Source: Enterobacteria phage vB_EcoM_IME341. From it: a DNA stretch of 64,000 nucleotides. The translations under genes and the position numbers were made by a program. This document shows, piece by piece, positions 1,235 to 58,215 of the stretch (position 1 is its first letter; every line of letters begins with the position of its first letter). The notes below the pieces were generated by a model. It was not told where the DNA came from, did no database searches, and was given only the letters and a program-made list of their open reading frames with translations. The stretch lies in the sequence record MH051917, one strand, 5' to 3'.

Positions 1235-2951
1235 CAATAGTGTATTGACCTGATGCTATAGAACTCATGGTCGACATAGTTTCAGACCAATTACCGGCAA
1301 CAGTCATATCAACGTTTCCGTTTACAGACCATTTAACGTTTCCATTTACTGTGTAATCATGGTTGCCTTCAACTAATGTTTTTGCATCACCTTTAACAGT
1401 TATATCGGCATTGCCTTCAACAATAACCGTAACGTTCCCTTTAACAATAAGGGTCCCATCACCTTCTACAGTTTTGGTTTCATTACCGCGAATATGGATG
1501 CTTTCGGACCCATCAGTTTGACGGCGCACGTTTGCCATATTATAATAGGTTTCATCACCACCTATATTGACTTTATTATTACCACCAACATAAGTATTTG
1601 AATCACCTTGGGTCATATAATACCCATCAGCTACAGTCTTAGAAGTTTTACGTCCGTCGGGAGCAACTTCTTCATAACTACCAGTTGGGTGGATTAAACG
1701 ATAACGTTCTTGCCCTGGGGTGTTATCGAATTCTTGAATATGTCCACCTTCAGTTTGCATGGTTTGGACATATGGGTATTCGCCTTTATAACTAGAATCA
1801 GGCTCTTTAAAAAGAATCCTTGTGTCTTCTGGAGTCCACGGATCGGCCGGGTCTGAATTTGTAGGAGCAGCAAAAGTTTGAATCATCCTATACGAACGCC
1901 CTTTAAATTCTCGTTCTTTAGGAGCCATTATGCCGTATGATTCCATATTACCGGTAAGGATAATCATTGATACCCTTGATGCACGCCCTTTAGTTTGGTT
2001 AAACCATACCGAATTTCTAGCTTCTTCAAATGCCTTTTTATAATCGCCTACTAACATTGCACCGAGCATACCACGGAATTTAGCCAACCCACCTAATCCC
2101 ATTTGGAAAGCCATGTTTTCAAGGGCCATTTGTCTTGAACGGTTTTCTTTATTGTAAACAGGACCTACAACACTGTGCCTACCTATATCATTTTGAACTT
2201 TTTTAAGGTCCTCTTGGAATAATTTAGAAGCCTCGTCCATTGATATTGCACCAGGGTTACCTTTAACTTCACGGCCTATTTGATTAGATAATATTTTGTT
2301 TATCTGATTCATATCTCTAATAGGTTGTGGTGTAATAAGGTGGCCTATACCTATAGTAGGATACCCTTCGGTGTCCCAATATACTTTAAGACGAAGACCC
2401 TCATCACGATGAAGCATGTTTTCTATTGTGAAATTAGGATTATCGTCAGGCTTGACTTGACTTAAATCTAAACCATCAGGATTAATACCTACATCAGTGT
2501 TTGCATCTTGTATTACGTTAGAAGTCGCATCATATCCAACTTCACCACCTCGGTTTAGTGCAGCAGCATCATTACCTAAATAAAGTGGGTATTGGCCTGT
2601 TGGGTCACTAAAACCTTCATTAGGGTTTGCTTTTTGTTTTGAAGCGGAACCGTATGTACCAAGGACAAGCCCGTTTAATTTCCACTTATCAAGAAAGTGG
2701 CCATAAACTTGTGTACCCGGGACCATACCTGTCATAGCGGTTTGGATACCAGAAACAGAGGCTGAAGATGTAGGCATTAATACTGACATCCATGGTAAAT
2801 CTTCTGTACGAAGGCCTTTTACAGGGCCCTGTACCTTTTCATAGGGATGCATACCCCATACGCGTACACGCACGCGACCTTGTTTGAGAGGGTCCATTCG
2901 GTCTTCAACCACACCGACGAACCAACTTACATTATCAGACATGTTAATCAT
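1209..2951 (-). CDS. 5: gp5 baseplate hub subunit and tail lysozyme
   Basis: 580 aa; N-terminal MINMSDNVSWFVGVVEDRMDPLKQGRVRVRV, lysozyme core YWDTEGYPTIGIGHLI, C-terminal VxGNxxV beta-helix repeats; T4 gp5 architecture. Confidence 0.95.
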   Translation of the reverse strand: MINMSDNVSWFVGVVEDRMDPLKQGRVRVRVWGMHPYEKVQGPVKGLRTEDLPWMSVLMPTSSASVSGIQTAMTGMVPGTQVYGHFLDKWKLNGLVLGTYGSASKQKANPNEGFSDPTGQYPLYLGNDAAALNRGGEVGYDATSNVIQDANTDVGINPDGLDLSQVKPDDNPNFTIENMLHRDEGLRLKVYWDTEGYPTIGIGHLITPQPIRDMNQINKILSNQIGREVKGNPGAISMDEASKLFQEDLKKVQNDIGRHSVVGPVYNKENRSRQMALENMAFQMGLGGLAKFRGMLGAMLVGDYKKAFEEARNSVWFNQTKGRASRVSMIILTGNMESYGIMAPKEREFKGRSYRMIQTFAAPTNSDPADPWTPEDTRILFKEPDSSYKGEYPYVQTMQTEGGHIQEFDNTPGQERYRLIHPTGSYEEVAPDGRKTSKTVADGYYMTQGDSNTYVGGNNKVNIGGDETYYNMANVRRQTDGSESIHIRGNETKTVEGDGTLIVKGNVTVIVEGNADITVKGDAKTLVEGNHDYTVNGNVKWSVNGNVDMTVAGNWSETMSTMSSIASGQYTIDGSRIDIG

Positions 2952-3553
2952 TAGAGGGCTTTCTCCATTTCGCGAATAAGGGCAGAAATAAAGGACTCAA
3001 TATCATTAGGGTCTACAATCTTTATTTCGCGCTTATATTCATTTTTACGAATAGCATCCTCGTAAATATCTACTGCGGCCAAAGGGCCCTCATATTGAGG
3101 ATAACGTTTTTCTGTATCGCCTTTATCATACCAAGTGTACGGGTTTTCTGGAGTGTTAACAAGATTCCAGAATTTCTCACCCTTTTCATTAACATGATAA
3201 AGAACTTGATTACCACCTGCAGTAGAATATCTTTGGATAGCTGCTTGATAGGCCGCTTCTTGACCTGTAATCCAGCCGTAATAGGGGTCGTATATATTAT
3301 TGCACATCAATAAAACCCAGTATAATTGAACATTGCCATAAAGTTGATGGGCCAATTCTTCCGGACGAGGAGCCCCATTGATATAATAAGTTTTTAGTGT
3401 ATAATTTTTAGCCACTTTATCAAAATATTCTTTATAATTTCTAAATATATCAGTCATCGGCACGCTCAATACATCGGCATTGGTTAATGAGCCCGAATCC
3501 GGCTTGACTGTTTTTGATTCGTAATCGATAGGATCGAAAAATGAGAAGAGCAT
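2951..3553 (-). CDS. 53: gp53 baseplate wedge subunit
   Basis: 200 aa ORF directly upstream of gp5 on the same strand, divergent from gene 4 as in T4; SD GGAGG upstream. Confidence 0.8.
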   Translation of the reverse strand: MLFSFFDPIDYESKTVKPDSGSLTNADVLSVPMTDIFRNYKEYFDKVAKNYTLKTYYINGAPRPEELAHQLYGNVQLYWVLLMCNNIYDPYYGWITGQEAAYQAAIQRYSTAGGNQVLYHVNEKGEKFWNLVNTPENPYTWYDKGDTEKRYPQYEGPLAAVDIYEDAIRKNEYKREIKIVDPNDIESFISALIREMEKAL

Positions 3554-4958: not shown

Positions 4959-5549
4959 ATGAACGGTTTATTTAACCAAACTAACACCACCAACTTTATC
5001 TTAGAGGTTAGTGACTCAGGAATGACCCAGTCATTCAAATTGAACGTACAAGATGTAACACTACCTGGTATCCATATTCCGATCTCAGACGTCCCAGGAT
5101 CGACCCAGGGTATACATCGTGCTAAGCTGCCAGGTTCTACAGTAGAATTCGACCCATTGGTCGTGAACTTTCTTGTAGACCGTGAATTGAAATCATGGCT
5201 TGATGTTTATAAGTGGATGTTGTCATTAAACAACTACGTAACCCACGAATCCGAAGCTTGGCATCCTAAAGGCTTACCTGAAGCAATTACGCTCCATATT
5301 CTTGATAATAACAAACAGAAAATCGTAATGAGCATTCATTACTACGGTGGTTGGCCATCCGACCTATCCGAAATCCAGTACTCATATAAAGAGGATTCCG
5401 ACCCTGCGATAATCGCTACAGCAACATTCAACTTCAAATCGTTTGCTGTAGAAATAGATGGTACAATAGTTACAGGTCGTCCACAAATTGATTCGTATGC
5501 CGAACAACGTGTGGCTCGTATGTCTATGCATCCATCTATGAGAAAATAA
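4959..5549 (+). CDS. 3: gp3 tail completion / sheath stabilizer protein
   Basis: 196 aa ORF between gene 2 and gene 1 as in T4. Confidence 0.7.
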   Translation: MNGLFNQTNTTNFILEVSDSGMTQSFKLNVQDVTLPGIHIPISDVPGSTQGIHRAKLPGSTVEFDPLVVNFLVDRELKSWLDVYKWMLSLNNYVTHESEAWHPKGLPEAITLHILDNNKQKIVMSIHYYGGWPSDLSEIQYSYKEDSDPAIIATATFNFKSFAVEIDGTIVTGRPQIDSYAEQRVARMSMHPSMRK

Positions 5550-6302
5550 TGAAACTAATATCAATTGTAGGAATCAAACGTAGCGGTAAGGATACCGTTG
5601 CTAACTATGTAATCGAAAATATGGATTCGGTAAAATTTCAGCTCGCGGGTCCTATTAAAAAGTATCTGGCTGAAGCCTATGAATACATCTCTGATGACCC
5701 TGTATTCGACCGTAGTTATATGCCTAAACTCGATTTTAACTGTTTTGAAGGTATCGGTTACGACCGCGAAGAAATCCTTCCTTTAAAACCATATGATGTG
5801 ATTGATATCTTTGAAAATGCTATTGTCAAACTGAATAATATCCTTCCTATTCCGGGAATTGATGTTCTTACCGCATATCATTATGGTCTTACCCCAGTCC
5901 AGTATCTGTCTGAAGAAACAAAAGACCAACTGTTTGAAGTAATAAATAAAAATAACAATTGGTCAGTACGTCGTCTCATGCAGACCCTTGGGACCGATAT
6001 TATTGTTAACCAATTTGATAAGATGTATTGGGTTAAGTTGTTCGCTTTAGACTATTTTGATAAAATATACTCTGATGCGAAATACTATGTCGTACCTGAT
6101 GTTCGTCAAACACACGAAATTGATTCGCTCAGAGCGATGGGTGCTACGATTATTCATGTAGTTCGCGCTGAAACCGGTCAAGTACAAGACTCGCACATCA
6201 CTGAAGCGGGTCTACCAATTTTACCTGGTGACGTTGTTGTTGAAAATAACGGCACTCTTTCTGAACTATACACTACTATTGATAAATTATTAGGAAATAA
6301 AA

Positions 6303-6310
<8 letters not shown>
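5549..6310 (+). CDS. 1: gp1 deoxynucleoside monophosphate kinase
   Basis: 253 aa, P-loop IVGIKRSGKDT near N-terminus; T4 gene 1 position upstream of 57A. Confidence 0.85.
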
Positions 6311-36918: not shown

Positions 36919-37392
36919 ATGTTGTTGACCGGCAAATTATACAAAGAAGAAAAACAAAAACTTTATGATGCACAATGTGGTAAGTGTTTGATTTGTAAAC
37001 GTGAATTAAACCCTGATGTTCAAAGTAACCACCTTGACCACGACCACGAGTTAAACGGGCCAAAAGCCGGTAAGGTTCGTGGTTTACTATGTAACCTGTG
37101 CAATGCTGCAGAAGGACAAATGAAGCATAAGTTCAACCGTTCTGGTCTTAAAGGTCAAAACGTTGACTACCTCGAATGGTTAGAGAATTTGCTGGTCTAT
37201 CTGAAAGCTGATTATACTGAAAACAATATTCATCCTAATTTCGTTCCTGATAAAACCAAAGAGTTCAGCAGGTTGGGTAAGGAAGAAATGATTGCTGAAA
37301 TGCTTTCACATGGAATGACTTATAATGAATCTGCTACTAAGAAACAAATGGTCGATTCGTTTAAAAAACAACTGAGGAAATCGCTTAAATGA
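36919..37392 (+). CDS. 49: endonuclease VII (Holliday junction resolvase)
   Basis: MLLTGKLYKEEKQKLYDAQCGKCLICKRELNPDVQSNHLDHDHELNGPKAGKVRGLLCNLCNAAEG; highly similar to T4 gp49. Confidence 0.95.
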   Translation: MLLTGKLYKEEKQKLYDAQCGKCLICKRELNPDVQSNHLDHDHELNGPKAGKVRGLLCNLCNAAEGQMKHKFNRSGLKGQNVDYLEWLENLLVYLKADYTENNIHPNFVPDKTKEFSRLGKEEMIAEMLSHGMTYNESATKKQMVDSFKKQLRKSLK

Positions 37393-37513
37393 TTAATTTT
37401 TATGGCTACACATTTTATGCTTTAGCCGAATCTCTGAACGATGCAGTGCGTATTATGGGTGTTGAGTATCCTGCTCAATGGTTATTTGTTGTAACTAACA
37501 TGTGGGTTCTTTA

Positions 37514-37729
37514 ATGAACAAATTTCGTAATGCTGTTTCCGATATCCTGGCCAATATTACATTTGCCCTGTTTATCGTGTGCCTTTTAATCCTGGTCATC
37601 CCGTTTGGATTACTGTTTGTTATTATCGGTGCCCTGAGTACTGAAAAAGGTCTTGAAGGGTCTGAGTTCGAAAAACGAATCCAGTCTGTTCATGGTGTTA
37701 TTTCTAAAATGATGAAGGTGAAAGAATGA
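37514..37729 (+). CDS. small membrane protein
   Basis: 71 aa from ATG 37514; one TM helix. Confidence 0.45.
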   Translation: MNKFRNAVSDILANITFALFIVCLLILVIPFGLLFVIIGALSTEKGLEGSEFEKRIQSVHGVISKMMKVKE

Positions 37730-38022
37730 AACGTTTTGAAGAATATGTAGCTACTAATTGGACCGCATGGGACAAGTTCGGTGATGATTGGTACTTCCAT
37801 GACTGTGACCTGAACCCGGAATTCTTTGTCGGTAAGGAAGAAGACCTCAAGGACATCTATACTCTTTCAGAGATTCATGGTATCAAACCTACTGTCTACT
37901 TCTCTTTTGATGATACCGGGTTCCTTATCAAGATTTACGTCCCGTATGGAACTAATGAGGACGAAGTTCTAAAAACCTGGGACTACCAAGGAGTTATTTC
38001 CTGTGGACCAAAAGTTAACTAA
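37726..38022 (+). CDS. hypothetical protein
   Basis: 98 aa. Confidence 0.5.
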   Translation: MKRFEEYVATNWTAWDKFGDDWYFHDCDLNPEFFVGKEEDLKDIYTLSEIHGIKPTVYFSFDDTGFLIKIYVPYGTNEDEVLKTWDYQGVISCGPKVN

Positions 38023-48966: not shown

Positions 48967-51678
48967 ATGCAAGAATTCTATTTGACAGTCGAACAAATCG
49001 GTGATAATATTCTCGAACGTTACATCGATAAAAATGGTAACGAACGTAGTCGTGAAGTTCCTTACAAGCCCACAATGTTTATGCATGCCAATCCAGAGCA
49101 AGCCGTAAAATACATTGATATCTATGGTAAGGGTTGTGTTAAGAAAGAATTCGACTCTATGCGCGATGCATCCCAATGGATGAAACGTATGGACGATATG
49201 GGTCTCGAAGCCCTGGGTATGGACGACTATAAATTAGCCTATTTGTCTGATACCTATCGTAAAGAAATCAGGTATGATTCTTCTAAGATTCGTATTGCTA
49301 ACTTCGACATCGAGGTAACATCTCCTGATGGATTCCCTGAACCAGCTCAGGCTAAACATCCTATCGATGCCATTACCCACTACGACTCGATTGACGATAA
49401 ATTCTATGTATTCGACCTTTTAGTTTCGCCTTATGGTACCGTCGAAGAGTGGTCGATTAAAATCGCTGAGAAACTCCAAGAAGAAGGTGGTGACGAAGTT
49501 CCACAAGAAATCATTGACAAAATCGTTTATCTTCCGTTTAATTCCGAAGAAGAAATGATGCTTGAGTATCTGAATTTCTGGCAACAGAAAACTCCTGTGA
49601 TTTTGACTGGATGGAACGTTGAGTCGTTTGACGTACCATACGTTTATAACCGTCTGAAAAATCTGTTTGGTGAGAACACTGCTAAGCGATTAAGCCCGCA
49701 TCGTAAGACTCGTGTTAAAGTTATCGAGAACATGTACGGTGCTCGTGAAATTATTACATTGTTCGGTATCTCTGTTCTAGATTATATCGACCTGTATAAA
49801 AAATTCAGCTTTACCAACCAGCCTTCTTATTCTCTGGATTATGTTTCTGAATATGAATTGAAAGTAGGTAAGTTGAAATATGATGGTCCAATCTCCAAGT
49901 TACGTGAGACTAACCACCAACGATATATTTCCTATAACATTATCGACGTATATCGTGTAGTGCAGATTGATATGAAACGCCAGTTCATTCTTTTGAGTTT
50001 GGACATGGGTTATTATGCTAAGATGCAGATTCAGTCGGTGTTCAGTCCAATTAAGACTTGGGATGCTATTATCTTTAATAGCCTTAAAGAACAAGGCAAG
50101 GTCATTCCGCAGGGTCGTTCACACGTGGTCCAACCTTATCCTGGTGCTTTCGTTAAGGAACCTATTCCTAACGCTTACAAATATGTAATGAGTTTCGACC
50201 TTACATCTCTGTACCCGAGTATCATTCGACAAGTGAATATAAGCCCAGAGACCATCGCAGGGACATTCGCTAACGCACCTATACATGAATATATTGCCGG
50301 AACAGCTCCGCGTCCTAGCGACACCTACAGTTGCTCTCCTAACGGCATGATGTACTATAAAGACCGTGAAGGTGTGATTCCGACAGAAATCACTAAGGTG
50401 TTCTTACAACGTAAAGAACATAAAGGTTATATGCTTGCAGCCCAACGTAATGGTGAGTTAATTAAAGAAGCATTAGAAAATCCTAATCTCTCGGTTGATA
50501 GTCCACTGGATATCGATTATCGTTTTGACTTCTCTGACGAAATCAAAGCCCAGATTAAAGCACTGTCAGCGCCTTCTTTAAGAGAAATGTTGAAGAAAGC
50601 CGAGCTCACTGAAGTTGCAGGTAATACGGCTCAGATTAACCGTAAGTTGCTTATCAACTCCCTTTATGGTGCACTTGGTAACGTATGGTTCCGTTACTAC
50701 GACCTCAGGAACGCAACTGCAATCACACTGTTTGGTCAAATGGCCCTCCAATGGATTGAACGTAAGGTTAACGAATATCTGAATAGCGTGTGTAAGACTG
50801 AAAACCAGAAGTTCGTGCTCTATGGTGATACTGACTCCATTTATGTTAAGGCAGATGCAATCATCAATAAAGTAGGTGAAGATAAATTCCGTGACACTAA
50901 CCACTGGGTCGACTTCTTAGATAAATTTGCACGTGAACGTATGGAACCGGCTATTGATGCAGGCTTCCGTGAGATGTGCGAGTACATGAACAACAAACAA
51001 CACTTGATGTTCATGGACCGAGAAGCTATCGCAGGTCCTCCACTTGGTTCTAAAGGTCTTGGTGGATTCTGGACAGGCAAGAAACGTTATGCACTGAACG
51101 TTTGGGACATGGAAGGTACTCGTTATGCCGAACCACACTTGAAAATCATGGGCCTTGAAACTCAGAAATCAAGTACGCCTAAAGCGGTTCAGAAAGCTCT
51201 GAAAGAATGTATCCGTCGTATGCTTCAGGAAGGCGAGGCCTCTTTGCAAGAATATTTCAAACAGTTTAATAAGGAATTTAACGAACTAAACTATGTAAGC
51301 ATTGCAGCAGTATCCAGTGCTAACAACATTGAGAAATATAACGAAGGCGGATTCCCTGGTTCTAAATGCCCGTACCATATCAAAGGTTGCTTAGCTTACA
51401 TGCGTGCTTCTGCAGGTGATTTGACTATGCCTCGTATCGTTGATGGTGAAAAGGTATATGTACTGCCACTTAAAGAAGGCAACCCGTTTGGTGAAGCCTG
51501 TATGGCATGGCCGTCAGGTATTGAACTTCCAGTTCAGATTCGTGACCAAGTCCTCCGTTGGATGGACTACAACGTACTGTTCCAAAAGACCTTTATCAAG
51601 CCTCTGACTGGTTTTACTGAGTCCGCTAAAATCGACTACGAGAAAAAAGCAACATTATTTGATATGTTCGACTTTTAA
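48967..51678 (+). CDS. 43: gp43 DNA polymerase (family B)
   Basis: 903 aa; MQEFYLTVEQIGDNILERYID..., exo and pol motifs (FDIE, YGDTDS); ORF-track start 48907 is upstream. Confidence 0.95.
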   Translation: MQEFYLTVEQIGDNILERYIDKNGNERSREVPYKPTMFMHANPEQAVKYIDIYGKGCVKKEFDSMRDASQWMKRMDDMGLEALGMDDYKLAYLSDTYRKEIRYDSSKIRIANFDIEVTSPDGFPEPAQAKHPIDAITHYDSIDDKFYVFDLLVSPYGTVEEWSIKIAEKLQEEGGDEVPQEIIDKIVYLPFNSEEEMMLEYLNFWQQKTPVILTGWNVESFDVPYVYNRLKNLFGENTAKRLSPHRKTRVKVIENMYGAREIITLFGISVLDYIDLYKKFSFTNQPSYSLDYVSEYELKVGKLKYDGPISKLRETNHQRYISYNIIDVYRVVQIDMKRQFILLSLDMGYYAKMQIQSVFSPIKTWDAIIFNSLKEQGKVIPQGRSHVVQPYPGAFVKEPIPNAYKYVMSFDLTSLYPSIIRQVNISPETIAGTFANAPIHEYIAGTAPRPSDTYSCSPNGMMYYKDREGVIPTEITKVFLQRKEHKGYMLAAQRNGELIKEALENPNLSVDSPLDIDYRFDFSDEIKAQIKALSAPSLREMLKKAELTEVAGNTAQINRKLLINSLYGALGNVWFRYYDLRNATAITLFGQMALQWIERKVNEYLNSVCKTENQKFVLYGDTDSIYVKADAIINKVGEDKFRDTNHWVDFLDKFARERMEPAIDAGFREMCEYMNNKQHLMFMDREAIAGPPLGSKGLGGFWTGKKRYALNVWDMEGTRYAEPHLKIMGLETQKSSTPKAVQKALKECIRRMLQEGEASLQEYFKQFNKEFNELNYVSIAAVSSANNIEKYNEGGFPGSKCPYHIKGCLAYMRASAGDLTMPRIVDGEKVYVLPLKEGNPFGEACMAWPSGIELPVQIRDQVLRWMDYNVLFQKTFIKPLTGFTESAKIDYEKKATLFDMFDF

Positions 51679-51680
51679 GT

Positions 51681-51710
51681 GTTTACATACCACAAGGAAC
51701 GTGGTAGTAT
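51681..51710 (+). promoter_or_regulatory. early promoter (GTTTAC / TAGTAT) with inverted repeat
   Basis: gtttacataccacaaggaacgtggtagtat. Confidence 0.5.
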
Positions 51711-51741
51711 CCTTCCTATCAACTACTTAGAGGAAATTACA

Positions 51742-51978
51742 ATGGAAGCTTTAATCGTTAGTGCTGGTGTTTTAGGATTTGGTTCTCTGGTTATTATGTT
51801 CATCGGTTACTTTTTACCATGGATTTTAGCTCTTCTGCGAGGCACTCGTAGTAATGTAGGAATTTTCTTCCTTAATCTCCTGTTGGGTTGGACGATGATT
51901 GGTTGGGTAGTGGCTTTAATCTGGGCTATCGTCGCTGAACGTAAATCAAACGCACAAATCATTATCGTTAAGCAATGA
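51742..51978 (+). CDS. superinfection immunity (Imm)-like membrane protein
   Basis: 78 aa, two TM helices; directly after gene 43 where T4 has imm. Confidence 0.55.
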   Translation: MEALIVSAGVLGFGSLVIMFIGYFLPWILALLRGTRSNVGIFFLNLLLGWTMIGWVVALIWAIVAERKSNAQIIIVKQ

Positions 51979-52112
51979 AAATAATTATTTTATTTCTTAT
52001 AATGGCTGCCTTTACCGTTTATTGGGCAGTGGCAATTCCGCCAATGATTCCGACACTAATCATCGGATGGATTATTCTTATAGCACAAATTAAGTATAAC
52101 TGTTTTAATTGA
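51975..52112 (+). CDS. possible 45-aa membrane peptide
   Basis: MKIIILFLIMAAFTVYWAVAIPPMIP... Confidence 0.35.
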   Translation: MKIIILFLIMAAFTVYWAVAIPPMIPTLIIGWIILIAQIKYNCFN

Positions 52113-52119
52113 GGATATT

Positions 52120-52620
52120 ATGAAAAAGTTAATTATCGCAATGAGTATACTCCTATCAGGTTGCGCGGCCCAATATGGTGATGCAGTTTCAGCCGATGAA
52201 GTTGGTAAAGCTCGTATCGCAGCTGAACAGAAACAATTCGATGGCGAAATGAAATTCCGTGCAGGTTCTGGACTTGTGTATACCCGAGCTAATAATCAAT
52301 GCGGTAATAACTGTGCAAAATATGCTCAAAGGGAAATCGAATTCCAACGTGAACAAGAGTCTAAGCGTGAAGCGGTACTAGCCAAACACCAGGCAGAAAT
52401 GAAGCGCCAAGATGATTTGTACAAAAAGCAGAAACTGTATGCGATGTGCGTAAACCATATCAATCTACAGATTTCTATCCATGAGGCTCGTTATTACGAA
52501 ATGCTCGAAACCGAGAGCTTCGATAAAGCCCGTGATTATAAGAAACAAATCAATAAGCTCAAGACCAAAGTACCGGCGGCAATAGAACAGTGTATTGAAA
52601 TCGGTAAAGATAAGATTTAA
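52120..52620 (+). CDS. predicted lipoprotein
   Basis: Signal peptide with lipobox LLSGC; coiled-coil rest. Confidence 0.55.
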   Translation: MKKLIIAMSILLSGCAAQYGDAVSADEVGKARIAAEQKQFDGEMKFRAGSGLVYTRANNQCGNNCAKYAQREIEFQREQESKREAVLAKHQAEMKRQDDLYKKQKLYAMCVNHINLQISIHEARYYEMLETESFDKARDYKKQINKLKTKVPAAIEQCIEIGKDKI

Positions 52621-52680
52621 GCAATACCAATTTATTAAAAATAGTGTATAATGTACCTACATTCACTTGAGGAACAGATA

Positions 52681-54354
52681 ATGAAAAAGGTTGTTATTTT
52701 AGGCGCAGGTCTTGGCTCACGGTTGTATCCAATTACTAACGAAATCCCGAAGGTATTGGTTAACTACAAACAACATACTGTATTAAAACATTTGTATGAT
52801 TTGTATAGTAACCAATCGGATGAAATTATTCTGGTTATTCACAGCAAATTTAACGACCTCGTTAAAGGCTATATTAAATCCATTAACATGATTAATAGTG
52901 ATAAGCCTAAATTCACTATTCGTAACGTAGATGTGGCTAATGGTTCAGCTCATGCTATTGATTGCATTGCCGAAGATATCATCGGGCACAATGTCTTGTT
53001 TAACTGGTGTGATATTATTCCTGAAGGTTATAAAGTTGAGTGGGATAACGACTATTGCTATACCTACGGGACTGACTGTCGTTTTACATTTGAAGAACCG
53101 TACTTGCGTGAAATTGGTACCGGTGGTGGCGTAGTTGGCTTGTATCAGGTGGCTAATTGGACAGGTTTTAACGGTCTGTATTATGGCGAAGACCTGGCCG
53201 ACAACCTGGATTCAATGGTCCATTTGACCGAACGTAAGCTAGACTTTGTAGTTGATGTCGGTGACAAACTGAAACTGGCTAAGGCCCATGAAGAATCTGA
53301 AATTAACCGTGAATTTAATAAATTAGAGTTCACTGAGAATCTGGCTATTAAAGTACCTACCAACGAATTAGGTAAAGAAATCCAATCTAAAGAAATCAAT
53401 TGGTATAATTCTATTGATTCTGAATTTGTTCCGAGCATTGTAGACTTTGCTCCAGGTGAATTCATTAAAATGGAACGTATCTTTGGTCGTACTATGGCAG
53501 ATGCCTATCGGTTTATGTCTAAAGAAACTAAAGTCCTCATGGTTTATAAGGTCATTAGTGCATTACGTTCATTCGGTGGAACTATCGATAATCCATCCGA
53601 TGAGCAATGGTATTCCGATGTTAAGAAAGAAGTATTGGACAAGGTCCTTATTCGTAATGCTTCTATTGCCGGATTGATTGAAGGCTTTGCTCCACAGGGC
53701 ATTACCCATGTCAATGACTTTAAGGTAGGCGACCCTGAAAAACTTCTTCGCCATGCACTAGAAATTCTGTCTGAACATAAAGAACCGTACCAACTTATTC
53801 ATGGCGACCCGCACTACAGTAATATTATGTTGTCGGACGAAGGTGATATTAAAATCATCGACCCACGTGGTTATTTTGGTAATAGTTCTAAAGGCCCTGC
53901 GATTTATGACGAAGCTAAAGTGCTTTATTCTATCGATGGTTATGACAAATTTAACTCTGACCCTCTATGGGGCGGCTTAACTCGTAACGGAACTCGTGTA
54001 TTCGTTGATATTGAAAAGGTTATGCCTTTAGACGATATTCCGATGTGTACATTTAAGCACAAGCTCTGGATTGCTGTTATCTGGATGGCATTGGCAGGTT
54101 ACTTTAAAAATAACCCTCTGAAAGCTCTGGGTGCTTATTACAACGGGTTGTACCAACTGAGTGTGCTGCTTAAGCGGCATCCTCGTAAGCGTAAGCTTAT
54201 CACAGGTGAATTTGTCGATGAAGTTCGTGACCCTATCACGGCTCAAATTATCACTCGTTGTCCTGATAAGTGGGTTTTGCTTGACCAAGAAACTGGTGTA
54301 AAATATAAACCTACAGGTTCTACTGAACTCCACAAACAATGGAAGAAAATTTAA
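52681..54354 (+). CDS. bifunctional sugar-1-phosphate nucleotidyltransferase / APH-fold kinase
   Basis: N-terminal NTP-transferase motif ILGAGLGSRLYP; C-terminal kinase motifs LIHGDPHYSNIML and IDPRGYFG (Brenner / DFG-like); 557 aa. Confidence 0.65.
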   Translation: MKKVVILGAGLGSRLYPITNEIPKVLVNYKQHTVLKHLYDLYSNQSDEIILVIHSKFNDLVKGYIKSINMINSDKPKFTIRNVDVANGSAHAIDCIAEDIIGHNVLFNWCDIIPEGYKVEWDNDYCYTYGTDCRFTFEEPYLREIGTGGGVVGLYQVANWTGFNGLYYGEDLADNLDSMVHLTERKLDFVVDVGDKLKLAKAHEESEINREFNKLEFTENLAIKVPTNELGKEIQSKEINWYNSIDSEFVPSIVDFAPGEFIKMERIFGRTMADAYRFMSKETKVLMVYKVISALRSFGGTIDNPSDEQWYSDVKKEVLDKVLIRNASIAGLIEGFAPQGITHVNDFKVGDPEKLLRHALEILSEHKEPYQLIHGDPHYSNIMLSDEGDIKIIDPRGYFGNSSKGPAIYDEAKVLYSIDGYDKFNSDPLWGGLTRNGTRVFVDIEKVMPLDDIPMCTFKHKLWIAVIWMALAGYFKNNPLKALGAYYNGLYQLSVLLKRHPRKRKLITGEFVDEVRDPITAQIITRCPDKWVLLDQETGVKYKPTGSTELHKQWKKI

Positions 54355-54713
54355 TGCATCTGTGTTTTGATATCGATAACACAATCACGGTTTGGAACCA
54401 CGACCGTGATTATGAAAACTTTAAACCGGACACCGAAATGGTGTCCATGATTAATAAGCTTTATGACGAAGGTTATGAGATTACACTGTTCACTGCTCGT
54501 GGCATGACTTCATGTGGACCCGGTCGAATCTTGGTTGAAGTAGTTCCTGCATTGGTTAAGAACCTTGAAAAGATTGGATTGAAATATCATAATCTGCTTA
54601 CACACAAGCCGAGTTATACTTTTATCATCGATGACCGAGCAATCCGTCCTGACCACTTTAAAGAAATGGTTCGTGAAGGAACTCTTGAAACCTATAAGGC
54701 ATATCATCCGTGA
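54354..54713 (+). CDS. HAD-superfamily phosphatase
   Basis: Motif I FDIDNTIT (DxDxT), motif II TLFTARG, motif III K...IIDD; 119 aa. Confidence 0.65.
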   Translation: MHLCFDIDNTITVWNHDRDYENFKPDTEMVSMINKLYDEGYEITLFTARGMTSCGPGRILVEVVPALVKNLEKIGLKYHNLLTHKPSYTFIIDDRAIRPDHFKEMVREGTLETYKAYHP

Positions 54714-55246
54714 AACCAAAAATCATTGTTATCGACGGCCCGGATAATTCCGGGAAGTCTACTTTAATTGAATCACTTTTATCTGATAAGAAATATCGTC
54801 TTATTGATTTTCCTAAAAAGATTAATGGCAAATGCATTTCATTAGGGACTGATAATGACAAGGCTTTAGTCGAGACGTTGTATAAGTTTTTAGACCCTAA
54901 TTTCGTTTACATCCTCGACCGTGGTTATCCAAGTAATATAGTTTACTCAGGATTCCTTCGTGGTGAAATGGACCCTTATGTGGAACTAGCAGATTGGATT
55001 GATTTCAAAAAAGAATTCAATATCATTGAGATTATTTTAACCCGTAATCCGTTGGATAAAGACTTTGAAGATGACCTCATTAAACTGACTAAAGATGAGT
55101 TCAACTTAACTATTCAGAAATATGAAGACTGTTTTAAAAATGTTTTTAAAGTTTTAAACCATGACGGACATAATAACTTGCTTAACGTCGATATGGTAGA
55201 ATTAAAACGTCTGAATGAATATATTGAAAATAAGGTGAATAAATGA
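54710..55246 (+). CDS. P-loop nucleoside/nucleotide kinase-like protein
   Basis: Walker A IDGPDNSGKST in a 178-aa protein (dNK/TMK-like size). Confidence 0.55.
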   Translation: MKPKIIVIDGPDNSGKSTLIESLLSDKKYRLIDFPKKINGKCISLGTDNDKALVETLYKFLDPNFVYILDRGYPSNIVYSGFLRGEMDPYVELADWIDFKKEFNIIEIILTRNPLDKDFEDDLIKLTKDEFNLTIQKYEDCFKNVFKVLNHDGHNNLLNVDMVELKRLNEYIENKVNK

Positions 55247-55941
55247 AACACATTACCGCTGTTAGTTTTGAAAACGCGTTTAAGCAAATGAACGAAGAAA
55301 TCCTGGAAGCTCCACAGTTTGCAGTTGATTCTCGTATCGGCCGTTGTTATGAAATTGGTTCTGCTTCGGTAGAAGTACTGGATGCAAGCACTTACAAATT
55401 CACCGATCCCCGCATTAATCGTATCAACTATGATTATGCCGAATCTTTCTGGAAATTTATGATTTCTGGTGGTACTGATGCCGCCGAAGCATTTAAGGAA
55501 TATCCTAATGTTGCTAAGTTCATTGATAAGCCGAAAAGTGACGTATTGCCTGCAAACTTCAACACTTTCTATGGACCTCGAATTGTGGCCCAACTCCCAG
55601 CCCTACTTAAAGAGCTTAAAGAAAAGCCTAACTCGCGAAGAGTTGTGTTCCAGATTCTCCAAGAACAAGACCAAGCCCTCCTTGATTCTGACGAATCCTT
55701 AGAATATCCGTGTACCGATTCGGTAACATATTATATTCGTGATGGACGTCTGTATGCACACACTCATATGCGTTCACAGAACTGTGCTATCGTTATGCAG
55801 CTGGATTTCTATCTGCAGGGTAAACTGATGGCCTTTATTGCTGAACAGTGTGGTGTTGGTCTGGGTACGTATTCCCATACTATGGTTAGTGCACATGTAT
55901 TTGAACGTGATTTTGACTACGTTCGAGGATTCCTGAAATGA
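55243..55941 (+). CDS. thymidylate-synthase-superfamily pyrimidine hydroxymethylase (divergent gp42-like)
   Basis: Recalled TS/dCH motifs: NSRR, catalytic PC (EYPCTDSVTYYIRDG), HMRSQN, Asp at specificity position, HVFERDF. Confidence 0.6.
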   Translation: MKHITAVSFENAFKQMNEEILEAPQFAVDSRIGRCYEIGSASVEVLDASTYKFTDPRINRINYDYAESFWKFMISGGTDAAEAFKEYPNVAKFIDKPKSDVLPANFNTFYGPRIVAQLPALLKELKEKPNSRRVVFQILQEQDQALLDSDESLEYPCTDSVTYYIRDGRLYAHTHMRSQNCAIVMQLDFYLQGKLMAFIAEQCGVGLGTYSHTMVSAHVFERDFDYVRGFLK

Positions 55942-56831
55942 GTCTGTTTATCGTTCCTATTTTCAGTATGCGTAGTTACGAAACAGGTGAATATGCCGTC
56001 CTTAAGGACGGTAATTTTCAACTCCATTTAAACCGTGCTTGCCCAGGTGATTATCTGGCTTATCCTAGAAATTCGAGCGATATCAAAGAATGTATTGAAT
56101 TGTTTCCTGAACTGAATTTTGTACCGCTTTGGTATAAAGAAAATGCTTATGAAACCCGTAAACATTTTTGGTCTGAAAATGAGTTCGTTGTTGATTCGCT
56201 AATCGAATACTATGACTGCTCAGGATTAGTAACCGATATCACAGGTTATGATGGTGCTCAGACAGTACAATTCAACTTTAACATTACAATGGACCCTGAA
56301 GTTCCTCGTTATTATATTGATGAGTTCATTGATATCGATGTGTCTTCGGTTGAACGTTCGATTTATACTACAGTCCTTAACCAATGCCAGAAAGACGTCC
56401 TGGTGTCACGAGGTGCGTCCTCTGATAAGATTTTTGTAGACCAAAAGGTAATTAATCCTGCAATAATTGAGCGTTACTCTGAAGGTCTAGCGCCTATTAA
56501 AATTGATGGTATTTTCCATCCATTCCGTATCTCTGATAAATGCTATCAATTCGAAAGAGTTGTAGACCAAGCTGCGGCTGAAGGTTCTCGTCTTTACATC
56601 ACCGATCCGAATGATTCATTTAAGCGTGAAGACTATCGTCCTGATGTAGAGATTATTAAATTCAAACCGAGTAAGGTTGAATATTATCAGATTCTGAAAT
56701 CAAGACCTCATATCATTTATCATGAGAATCCTGGTTTAGTATTCCATCCTGGTCTAGCTGAATTCATTTATTTCGGTGCCCATATCCATTCTGAGTACGA
56801 AATGCCGAGTTATGAGGACGTAGTATGCTAG
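55938..56831 (+). CDS. hypothetical protein in the position of T4 beta-glucosyltransferase
   Basis: 297 aa; no motif recognised by eye. Confidence 0.5.
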   Translation: MSLFIVPIFSMRSYETGEYAVLKDGNFQLHLNRACPGDYLAYPRNSSDIKECIELFPELNFVPLWYKENAYETRKHFWSENEFVVDSLIEYYDCSGLVTDITGYDGAQTVQFNFNITMDPEVPRYYIDEFIDIDVSSVERSIYTTVLNQCQKDVLVSRGASSDKIFVDQKVINPAIIERYSEGLAPIKIDGIFHPFRISDKCYQFERVVDQAAAEGSRLYITDPNDSFKREDYRPDVEIIKFKPSKVEYYQILKSRPHIIYHENPGLVFHPGLAEFIYFGAHIHSEYEMPSYEDVVC

Positions 56832-56956
56832 GTCCTTTATTGCTTTTTATAGGTTTGTTATTATTCTCTTTCGGAGCCTTGTTATTATTATGCTGGCTCG
56901 AGAAACGAGAAGTCCGGAAGATAGTCGATAAGGCTATCAACCGAGGAATAAAATAA
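56825..56956 (+). CDS. possible 43-aa membrane peptide
   Basis: MLGPLLLFIGLLLFSFGALLLLCW... Confidence 0.3.
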   Translation: MLGPLLLFIGLLLFSFGALLLLCWLEKREVRKIVDKAINRGIK

Positions 56957-57033
56957 CGCTGTAAATGTGAAGTGATATAATTACCCTATCTTAAAACGTG
57001 AGTAAAATATAATGGTGCCTATGGAAAAATATA

Positions 57034-58215
57034 ATGTCCGATTTAAAATCCCGTTTGATTAAAGCTTCTACTTCTAAAATGACTGCCGACCTGACCAAAT
57101 CTAAATTGTTTAATGGTCGTGACGAAGTTCCTACTCGTATCCCTATGCTTAATATTGCATTAGGCGGTGCATTGAATGCAGGCTTACAATCAGGTTTGAC
57201 AATCTTTGCTGCTCCATCTAAACACTTTAAAACGTTGTTTGGACTTACCATGGTTGCGGCATATATGAAGAAATATCCAGACGCAATTTGTTTGTTCTAT
57301 GACTCTGAGTTTGGTGCTTCAGAATCTTATTTCCGTTCGATGGGTGTTGACCTGGAACGTGTGGTTCATACACCAATCCAGTCAGTCGAACAGCTTAAAG
57401 TTGATATGACCAACCAGTTAGAAGAAATTACTCGCGGCGAAAAGGTTATTATCTTTATCGACTCCATTGGTAACACTGCTTCTAAGAAAGAAACCGAAGA
57501 TGCTTTGAACGAGAAAGTTGTAGGTGATATGACTCGTGCTAAGTCACTGAAATCTCTGTTCCGTATCGTAACACCTTATCTGACCATCAAAGATATCCCT
57601 TGTGTAGCAATTAACCACACGGCTATGGAAATTGGTGGAATGTATCCTAAAGAGATTATGGGTGGTGGTACTGGTATTCTGTACTCTGCTTCTACCGTGT
57701 TCTTTATCTCTAAACGTCAGGTTAAAGATGGTACTGAGCTCACTGGTTATGACTTCACACTGAAGGCTGAGAAATCTCGTACGGTTAAAGAGAAGTCAAC
57801 GTTCCCTATCACCGTTAACTTTGAAGGCGGTATCGACCCGTTCAGTGGATTGCTTGAAATGGCTACTGATATCGGCTTTGTCGTGAAACCTAAAGCTGGT
57901 TGGTATAATCGTGCATTCCTTGACGAAACCACGGGTGAAATGGTTCAAGAAGAAAAAGCATGGCGTGCCAAAGCTACCGATTGTGTTGAGTTCTGGGGAC
58001 CTCTGTTTAAACATGCCCCGTTCCGTGAAGCAATCGAGAATAAGTATAAGCTTGGTGCAATTAATTCTATTAAAGAAGTTGACGATGCAGTGAACGACCT
58101 TATTAACTCTCGTGTCTCTAAGAACGTTGCTGTTAAATTAGGCGGAAATACCCAAAGCGCCGCTGACATCGAAAGCGATTTAGAAAACATGAATTTTGTG
58201 AGCGACCATGACTGA
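57034..58215 (+). CDS. uvsX: UvsX recombinase (RecA-like)
   Basis: 393 aa; RecA fold motifs incl. Walker A-like region FAAPSKHFKT and loop regions; position before gp40/gp41. Confidence 0.9.
   Translation: MSDLKSRLIKASTSKMTADLTKSKLFNGRDEVPTRIPMLNIALGGALNAGLQSGLTIFAAPSKHFKTLFGLTMVAAYMKKYPDAICLFYDSEFGASESYFRSMGVDLERVVHTPIQSVEQLKVDMTNQLEEITRGEKVIIFIDSIGNTASKKETEDALNEKVVGDMTRAKSLKSLFRIVTPYLTIKDIPCVAINHTAMEIGGMYPKEIMGGGTGILYSASTVFFISKRQVKDGTELTGYDFTLKAEKSRTVKEKSTFPITVNFEGGIDPFSGLLEMATDIGFVVKPKAGWYNRAFLDETTGEMVQEEKAWRAKATDCVEFWGPLFKHAPFREAIENKYKLGAINSIKEVDDAVNDLINSRVSKNVAVKLGGNTQSAADIESDLENMNFVSDHD

Follow-up and report, generated by a model that had tools for sequence, protein, structure and literature searches.

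The DNA analyzed here, referred to as the window, is a stretch of 64,000 nucleotides (nt) from Enterobacteria phage vB_EcoM_IME341 (sequence record MH051917), a T4-like coliphage of the genus Dhakavirus. Our subject is an open reading frame (ORF) of 297 amino acids (aa) that begins with ATG and occupies positions 55938-56831 on the + strand. It is the fifth in a co-directional string of six genes (52651-56956) in which the ends of neighbors overlap. The six genes are listed below, followed by a kinase gene from elsewhere in the window.

52651..54354, + strand: 567-aa bifunctional protein, sugar-1-phosphate nucleotidyltransferase (N-terminal, GAGLGSRL) plus APH-type kinase (C-terminal); Pfam NTP_transferase and APH, NCBIfam uridylyltransferase families
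54339..54713, + strand: 124-aa HAD phosphatase, RB69 gp51/AfhF-like; NCBIfam capsule biosynthesis phosphatase, E 1e-14; 63% identity to RB69 gp51
54710..55246, + strand: 178-aa thymidylate-kinase-like (TMK-like) P-loop kinase, RB69 gp45 homolog; PHROG 761 thymidylate kinase; 37% identity to RB69 gp45
55243..55941, + strand: 232-aa ThyA homolog in the gene-42 position, predicted deoxycytidine monophosphate (dCMP) 5-hydroxylase, that is, 5-hydroxy-dCMP (5hodCMP) synthase; Pfam Thymidylat_synt
55938..56831, + strand: 297-aa predicted GT-B-fold glycosyltransferase, ortholog of "arabinosyltransferase 1"; RB69 gp47:46/DLP3 gp79/Thanatos TH1_063 family
56825..56956, + strand: 43-aa ORF, helix at the N-terminus hydrophobic, C-terminus basic; GAGGA 6 nt upstream
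5534..6307, + strand: gp1-type deoxynucleoside monophosphate kinase; 98.8% identity to IME08 gp1

The string is flanked by gp43 and imm upstream and by uvsX, gp40, and gp41 downstream. This gives the order 43-imm-...-ThyA homolog-297 aa-43 aa-uvsX-40-41, in which the 297-aa gene takes the slot of b-gt in T4 (43-imm.1-imm-42-b-gt-segA-uvsX). A previous, sequence-only reading had noted that the 297-aa protein lies exactly where T4 has its beta-glucosyltransferase (b-gt) and that a 43-aa hydrophobic ORF follows it; both observations hold. It had also proposed that the protein attaches an activated group to hydroxymethylated DNA, a proposal of which only a part survives, as described below.

The ORF is a real gene belonging to a conserved but small family. 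A GAGGA motif (55925-55929) lies 8 nt 5' of the ATG, and the start overlaps the stop of the ThyA-like gene in an ATGA (55938-55941), the two genes being translationally coupled. The alignment with RB69 ORF047c begins at residue 1, so the start is correctly assigned. We found homologs in 349 phage records, of which 345 have the full-length protein, and a library of 1.84 billion proteins contains 241 representative clusters of the family; given this conservation, the ORF is not a product of chance. The protein matched PHROG 3891 (E 6e-159), and among Dhakavirus relatives it is 98.7% identical in IME08 and 97-98% identical in JS10, QL01, and related phages.

We built an AlphaFold2 model on a 93-sequence family alignment and obtained a predicted local distance difference test (pLDDT) score of 95.9 and a predicted template modeling (pTM) score of 0.90. 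The model shows a GT-B fold with two Rossmann-like beta/alpha/beta domains, in agreement with Foldseek comparisons against the PDB and the BFVD viral models, which answers the question of the sequence-only reading whether the protein adopts GT-B or another transferase fold. In the family alignment, R197, K246, and the triplet H270-P271-G272 never vary, and the residue at position 275 is acidic throughout (E or D). These residues lie in the C-terminal domain, where, judging from conservation and predicted secondary structure, they may form the nucleotide-sugar site expected of GT-B enzymes, in which an Arg/Lys pair and a Glu/Asp at the N-terminus of a helix bind the nucleotide diphosphate and ribose. 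The model is thus that of a minimal GT-B enzyme, probably GT4-like. The earlier remark that no glycosyltransferase motif can be seen by eye was accurate, since neither the 297-aa protein nor any of the 93 homologs matched a Pfam or NCBIfam family, including Glycos_transf_1 and Glyco_trans_4. The family profile also found no match among PDB sequences. Compared with bacterial retaining glycosyltransferases of family GT4 (sucrose-phosphate synthase 6kih, BshA, PglA, PimA, MshA, and HepE), the protein shows 8-11% identity, is shorter by about 60-100 residues, and has a nucleobase as its predicted acceptor.

In hhalign comparisons, the family profile reached probabilities below 1% with T4 alpha-glucosyltransferase (alpha-gt), T4 b-gt, and RB69 gp3. 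T4 b-gt and the 297-aa protein share the slot between the gene-42 homolog and uvsX, a GT-B fold, and a place in a cytosine hypermodification pathway. However, they have no sequence homology, and while the T4 acceptor is hydroxymethylcytosine (hmC), the ThyA homolog next to the window gene appears from its sequence to be of the hydroxylase type. We therefore rejected the idea of a diverged beta-glucosyltransferase, there being no similarity and a different GT-B subfamily; the protein is a nonhomologous GT-B enzyme in the b-gt slot. With the T4 DNA alpha-glucosyltransferase (PDB 1y6f) sequence similarity is likewise undetectable, and the two differ in length (400 aa versus 297 aa), donor, and acceptor. 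The extension arabinosyltransferases of the Aat type, including RB69 gp3 and the HY126 enzyme (PDB 9iqz and 9ir0), form a separate family without profile similarity; they add the second and third arabinoses on DNA (PMC13326640).

The closest known relatives come from phages with arabinosylated DNA. The 297-aa protein is 70% identical to RB69 ORF047c (gp47), 65% identical to ORF046c (gp46), 51% identical to Thanatos TH1_063, and about 50% identical to the homologs of KARL-1 and of DLP1 and DLP2, relatives of DLP3. RB69 ORF047c and ORF046c are in fact one gene that a sequencing error splits in the reference record (Lee et al., NAR 2026, PMC13326640); the window gene, in contrast, is intact. The RB69 gp46:47/DLP3 gp79/TH1_063 family has been proposed to be the initiating alpha-arabinosyltransferase, "arabinosyltransferase 1," and Dhakaviruses have been named among the carriers of the arabinosylation cluster (PMC13326640). 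Earlier publications thus already cover the gene family, the role predicted for it, and its occurrence in Dhakaviruses, and what we describe is a rediscovery rather than a new system. As in these phages, the window gene is linked to a ThyA homolog with the 5hodCMP synthase signature and to genes for UDP-arabinose synthesis. The upstream genes correspond to HY126 AfhE (567 aa) and AfhF (124 aa), which are UDP-arabinofuranose enzymes, AfhE being reported to be a UDP-arabinose pyrophosphorylase (summarized in PMC13326640). The 567-aa protein is RB69 gp53:52/AfhE-like, with 41-43% identity to RB69 gp53 and gp52, and by analogy with the published roles is predicted to make UDP-arabinofuranose; the 124-aa HAD phosphatase is likewise a predicted arabinofuranose-1,5-bisphosphate 5-phosphatase (PMC13326640).

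The overall layout nevertheless differs from that of RB69, where the order is 43-arabinose-5-phosphate isomerase-gp54-AfhE-like-HAD-U32-family protein-gp49-ThyA homolog-glycosyltransferase-kinase-uvsX. In the window, the TMK-like kinase gene lies upstream of the ThyA homolog, one gene away from the glycosyltransferase, whereas the RB69 kinase gene lies downstream of the glycosyltransferase. The window lacks the arabinose-5-phosphate isomerase (gp55) and the U32-family protein (gp50); in their place are imm, a 45-aa ORF, and a 166-aa lipoprotein-like ORF. Furthermore, the Dhakavirus lineage is without the second glycosyltransferase of the gp3 type.

The nature of the acceptor base is indicated by the ThyA homolog. 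Its identity to the Mosigvirus enzyme of known structure (PDB 9iqu/9iqc/9ir2; E 1e-125) is about 80%, and that to RB69 gp48 is 79%. At the position of D169 in Escherichia coli ThyA, the window homolog carries an Asn (MRSQN); the corresponding sequence is MRSND in T4 gp42 and QRSCD in E. coli ThyA. An Asn at this position has been published as the signature of flavin/O2-dependent 5-hydroxy-dCMP synthases (PMC13326640 and other papers). The same papers revised the DNA chemistry of RB69-type phages, in which the sugar is ether bonded to 5-hydroxycytosine (5hoC) and not to hydroxymethylcytosine and the hydroxylated nucleotide is made by a thymidylate synthase homolog with flavin and O2. Synthesis of 5hodCMP has been shown for RB69 gp48 and DLP3 gp80, and the gp1-type kinase RB69 gp159 converts 5hodCMP to 5hodCDP (PMC13326640). 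Given the hydroxylase-type Asn and the similarity to the Mosigvirus enzyme, the acceptor is predicted to be 5-hydroxycytosine rather than hmC, and hydroxymethylated DNA is very probably not the substrate. The sequence-only reading was therefore partly right. Its transferase role is supported by the T4-like operon position, by the GT-B fold, and by orthology to "arabinosyltransferase 1," a family already known, and its premise of an hmC-modifying equivalent of b-gt is not.

A flavin-dependent hydroxylase needs reduced flavin, and with this a neighboring gene elsewhere fits. In a metagenomic contig of 383 kb that carries T4-like structural genes (L011:6426-9576; GCA_040384225.1), a Flavodoxin_2 gene of the NAD(P)H:flavin reductase type precedes a trio of ThyA-like, transferase, and TMK-like genes.

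We next consider how many glycosyltransferases the phage has. By tblastn, no homolog of RB69 gp3, T4 alpha-gt, or T4 b-gt was found in the window or in the whole 172-kb genome of IME08, a search that a dissimilar GT-B enzyme would escape. At this sensitivity no bona fide DNA glycosyltransferase was found elsewhere, the finding that according to the sequence-only reading would have spoken against its proposal, and we rejected a second, hidden glycosyltransferase in the genome. The 297-aa protein is supported as the best and, in this lineage, the sole detectable glycosyltransferase candidate. RB69 gp3 belongs to the same family as PDB 9iqz. In other phages, the number of additional glycosyltransferases parallels the number of arabinoses, with none in Thanatos (mono-), one in RB69 (di-), and two in DLP3 (tri-arabinosylated) (PMC13326640). 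The number of arabinoses would thus equal that of gp3-type enzymes plus one, and since the lineage has no gp3/Aat-type extension transferase, mono-arabinosyl-5-hydroxycytosine is the predicted product.

In IME08, the two slots in which other T4-like phages carry additional glycosyltransferases hold no gene, each being an intergenic stretch of about 570 nt (L004/L005). These are the slot of the RB69 gp3-type enzyme between rIIA.1 and gene 39 (2436-3016) and that of T4 alpha-gt between gene 47 and a-gt.2 (37315-37879).

From the gene itself, its fold and orthology, the operon around it, its recurrent pairing with a TMK-like kinase gene, and the failure to detect any other glycosyltransferase, we consider it likely, with a probability of roughly 70%, that the 297-aa protein is the initiating arabinosyltransferase for 5-hydroxycytosine. 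In the pathway that we infer, including donor, acceptor, stereochemistry, and transfer on DNA, the ThyA homolog would convert dCMP to 5-hydroxy-dCMP, which kinases (gp1-type, 5534-6307) would raise to the triphosphate for gp43 to put into DNA in place of dC. The 567-aa kinase/uridylyltransferase and the HAD phosphatase would together turn arabinose-5-phosphate into UDP-arabinofuranose (UDP-Araf). Because the phage is without an isomerase of its own, the arabinose-5-phosphate would have to be host derived, presumably through KdsD/GutQ. The 297-aa enzyme would bind the UDP-sugar in its C-terminal Rossmann domain (R197, K246, H270-P-G, and E/D275) and transfer arabinose onto the 5-OH of 5-hydroxycytosine with retention of configuration, yielding an alpha product, mono-arabinosyl-5-hydroxycytosine. 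The base-proximal arabinose is alpha linked in RB69 and DLP3 (PMC13326640), which is consistent with a retaining, GT4-like enzyme. The acceptor would most likely be newly replicated DNA, which we favor by analogy with T4 and with attachment of the third arabinose, a step shown on DNA (PMC13326640).

Several points weigh against this assignment. The protein has no glycosyltransferase signature at the sequence level, and its catalytic residues are assigned by prediction. We found no demonstration of transferase activity for any family member, and no chemical analysis of Dhakavirus DNA, in the accessible literature. The DLP3 glycosyltransferases, purified and tested singly, did not arabinosylate 5hoC-DNA with UDP-Araf or with UDP-arabinopyranose (UDP-Arap), and gp79, the ortholog of the 297-aa protein, was among those cloned (PMC13326640). 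Similarly, TH1_063 showed no transfer to DNA, dCMP, dCTP, or cytosine, acceptors that were all unhydroxylated (Brandt et al., PMC12838424).

The failure of the singly tested enzymes on 5hoC-DNA, where the authors could not tell transfer at the nucleotide level from that at the DNA level (PMC13326640), would be explained if the sugar were added before replication. In this case, arabinose would be attached to 5-hydroxy-dCMP, or to the corresponding di- or triphosphate, as a free nucleotide, the TMK-like kinase would phosphorylate the arabinosyl-nucleotide, and gp43 would incorporate it. In other phages, addition on DNA would then be confined to the second and third arabinoses. We regard this as unlikely. 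The TMK-like kinase is one reason to consider it. Since a gp1-type kinase already phosphorylates 5hodCMP and is present in the window, the additional kinase is left without an assigned job. It also follows the glycosyltransferase closely in its distribution, being present in 342 phage records compared to 349, with equal counts in 8 of the 10 taxa listed (for example, 177/177 in Escherichia and 57/57 in Acinetobacter, with 25/26 in Klebsiella and 9/14 in Serratia). Pairing of the two genes, usually together with a ThyA homolog, recurs in RB69, Thanatos, and the 383-kb metagenomic T4-like contig; in all three, as well as on a divergent 26-kb contig, the kinase gene adjoins that of the glycosyltransferase.

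Moreover, the two proteins are fused in at least nine representative clusters, eight of them with the kinase at the C-terminal end (P0210, P0220, P0224, P0229, P0242, P0247, P0248, and P0205) and one with the kinase at the N-terminal end (P0215), which suggests more than one fusion event. The fused domain of these metagenomic proteins contains the P-loop EGFDRIGKD and is thymidylate kinase-like, as indicated by a match to Pfam Thymidylate_kin (E 1e-4) and by weak PDB matches that are all thymidylate kinases. One such fusion (L015:7001-8725) lies within a full sugar activation cluster with SIS isomerase, AfhE-like, HAD-like, and U32 genes; for several others, the contigs are not long enough to give an informative gene context. 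No mention of these glycosyltransferase-kinase fusions was found in the accessible literature. Taken at face value, glycosyltransferase and kinase could make up a two-step module that converts 5-hydroxy-dCMP to arabinosyl-5-hydroxy-dCMP and then to the diphosphate, a scheme that we put forward as doubtful. If true, it would be the first prereplicative glycosylation route for DNA hypermodification and would account for the conserved second nucleotide kinase.

Fusion and adjacency, however, indicate a shared pathway and not a shared substrate. Other family members (P0131, P0142, P0147, P0151, P0163, P0168, P0192, and P0214) are fused instead to a HAD sugar phosphatase, seen as roughly 185 additional N-terminal residues that include the motifs DFDGIF ... 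ITGDS ... GDDIYD, so the kinase fusions may also reflect no more than membership in one pathway. Homology between the fused domain and the window kinase has no more than moderate support (hhalign E 3e-4 across 135 columns, probability 38%), and acceptance of arabinosylated dCTP by the polymerase has to be assumed. Finally, all characterized phage DNA glycosylations are postreplicative, including the one that adds the third arabinose (PMC13326640).

A different activity has been reported for the Thanatos ortholog. His-tagged TH1_063, incubated with UTP, xylose-1-phosphate, and pyrophosphatase, gave a product with the mass and tandem mass spectrometry pattern of UDP-xylose that was absent without enzyme (PMC12838424). 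Given the orthology to TH1_063 (51% identity), the 297-aa protein might accordingly supply the activated sugar as a UDP-pentose pyrophosphorylase, the transferase being another protein, but we consider this very improbable. The accessible part of that report describes a single, nonphysiological sugar and a no-enzyme control only, and the UDP-xylose could stem from a copurified E. coli uridylyltransferase or from a reverse or phosphorolytic glycosyltransferase reaction with contaminating UDP. The GT-B fold, which differs from that of sugar-1-phosphate nucleotidyltransferases, argues against a pyrophosphorylase as the physiological role. The N-terminal GxGxxxR(L)xP signature of the latter enzymes is absent from the 297-aa protein, while the 567-aa neighbor, the ortholog of the reported UDP-arabinose pyrophosphorylase AfhE, has both the classical nucleotidyltransferase domain (Pfam NTP_transferase) and the motif (GAGLGSRLYP). 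The pyrophosphorylase assignment would also leave the phage without any detectable transferase. Just as improbable is a nontransferase GT-B enzyme acting on a sugar nucleotide, of the UDP-sugar 2-epimerase-like or hydrolase-like kind, since the proposed route from arabinose-5-phosphate to UDP-Araf needs no epimerase and the pathway requires a transferase, no other being detectable in the lineage.

An initiating arabinosyltransferase, the role that we prefer for the 297-aa protein, is of interest because arabinosyl-5-hydroxycytosine protects T4-like phages against restriction enzymes, against certain CRISPR-Cas types, and against anti-phage glycosylases. Arabinosylated DNA is also hard to sequence and to engineer, which is relevant to the numerous isolates of Dhakavirus and Mosigvirus that have been put forward for phage therapy. 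Alone among the steps of the pathway, the initiating transfer is one for which we found no biochemical proof in the literature. With a single glycosyltransferase, no isomerase, and no U32 protein, the lineage is the simplest natural setting for testing it. The remaining value of the locus lies in the biochemistry of this step, in the conflict with the TH1_063 assay, and in the kinase fusions, which sharpen the question of DNA versus nucleotide as the acceptor.

The U32 protein, which is absent from the window phage, deserves separate mention. RB69 gp50 (L002:6493-7662) truly belongs to the Peptidase_U32 family (Pfam E 7e-11) and also matches UbiU weakly; it is 79% identical to Thanatos TH1_065 (L010:6927-8063), far above the values of other cluster proteins. 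Homologs with 50% identity lie beside distant transferase homologs on contigs without a visible ThyA-like gene (L012:9049-10125, L015:12024-13124, and L016:2605-3552). Among the members of the U32 family are the O2-independent hydroxylases RlhA (5-hydroxycytidine in 23S rRNA), TrhP (5-hydroxyuridine in tRNA), and UbiU/V, and for this reason the phage U32 proteins may represent an anaerobic route to 5-hydroxycytosine. On one of these contigs, the U32 gene comes after that of the most divergent transferase homolog (P0117), and next in line is the gene of a 359-aa protein (L012:10141-11220) with a weak Exostosin/GT47 match, which may be a second glycosyltransferase of a different kind. An adjacent polymerase of the PolIII-alpha type indicates a non-T4-like phage background.

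The string ends with the 43-aa ORF, MLGPLLLFIGLLLFSFGALLLLCWLEKREVRKIVDKAINRGIK, which has a single hydrophobic helix followed by a basic tail. It shares 7 nt with the end of the 297-aa gene, to which it is translationally coupled. IME08 carries an intact copy that differs by one substitution, and the ORF was detected only in Dhakavirus genomes (20 records), where it is mostly unannotated. Its slot is occupied in RB69 by the TMK-like kinase gene, and it may belong to the modification system. A scan of positions 51600-57100 for sigma-70 promoters and terminators performed no better than shuffled sequences.

The slot of the RB69 arabinose-5-phosphate isomerase, which lies between gp43 and the modification operon, holds three ORFs in the window (51679-52620, + strand), the last of which may encode a lipoprotein of the superinfection exclusion type.

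51679-51978, + strand: imm
51975-52112, + strand: 45-aa hydrophobic ORF; 55% identity to RB69 ORF054c
third ORF of 51679-52620, + strand: 166-aa ORF with a lipoprotein-type signal, MKKLIIAMSILLSGC; PHROG 1754, unknown function

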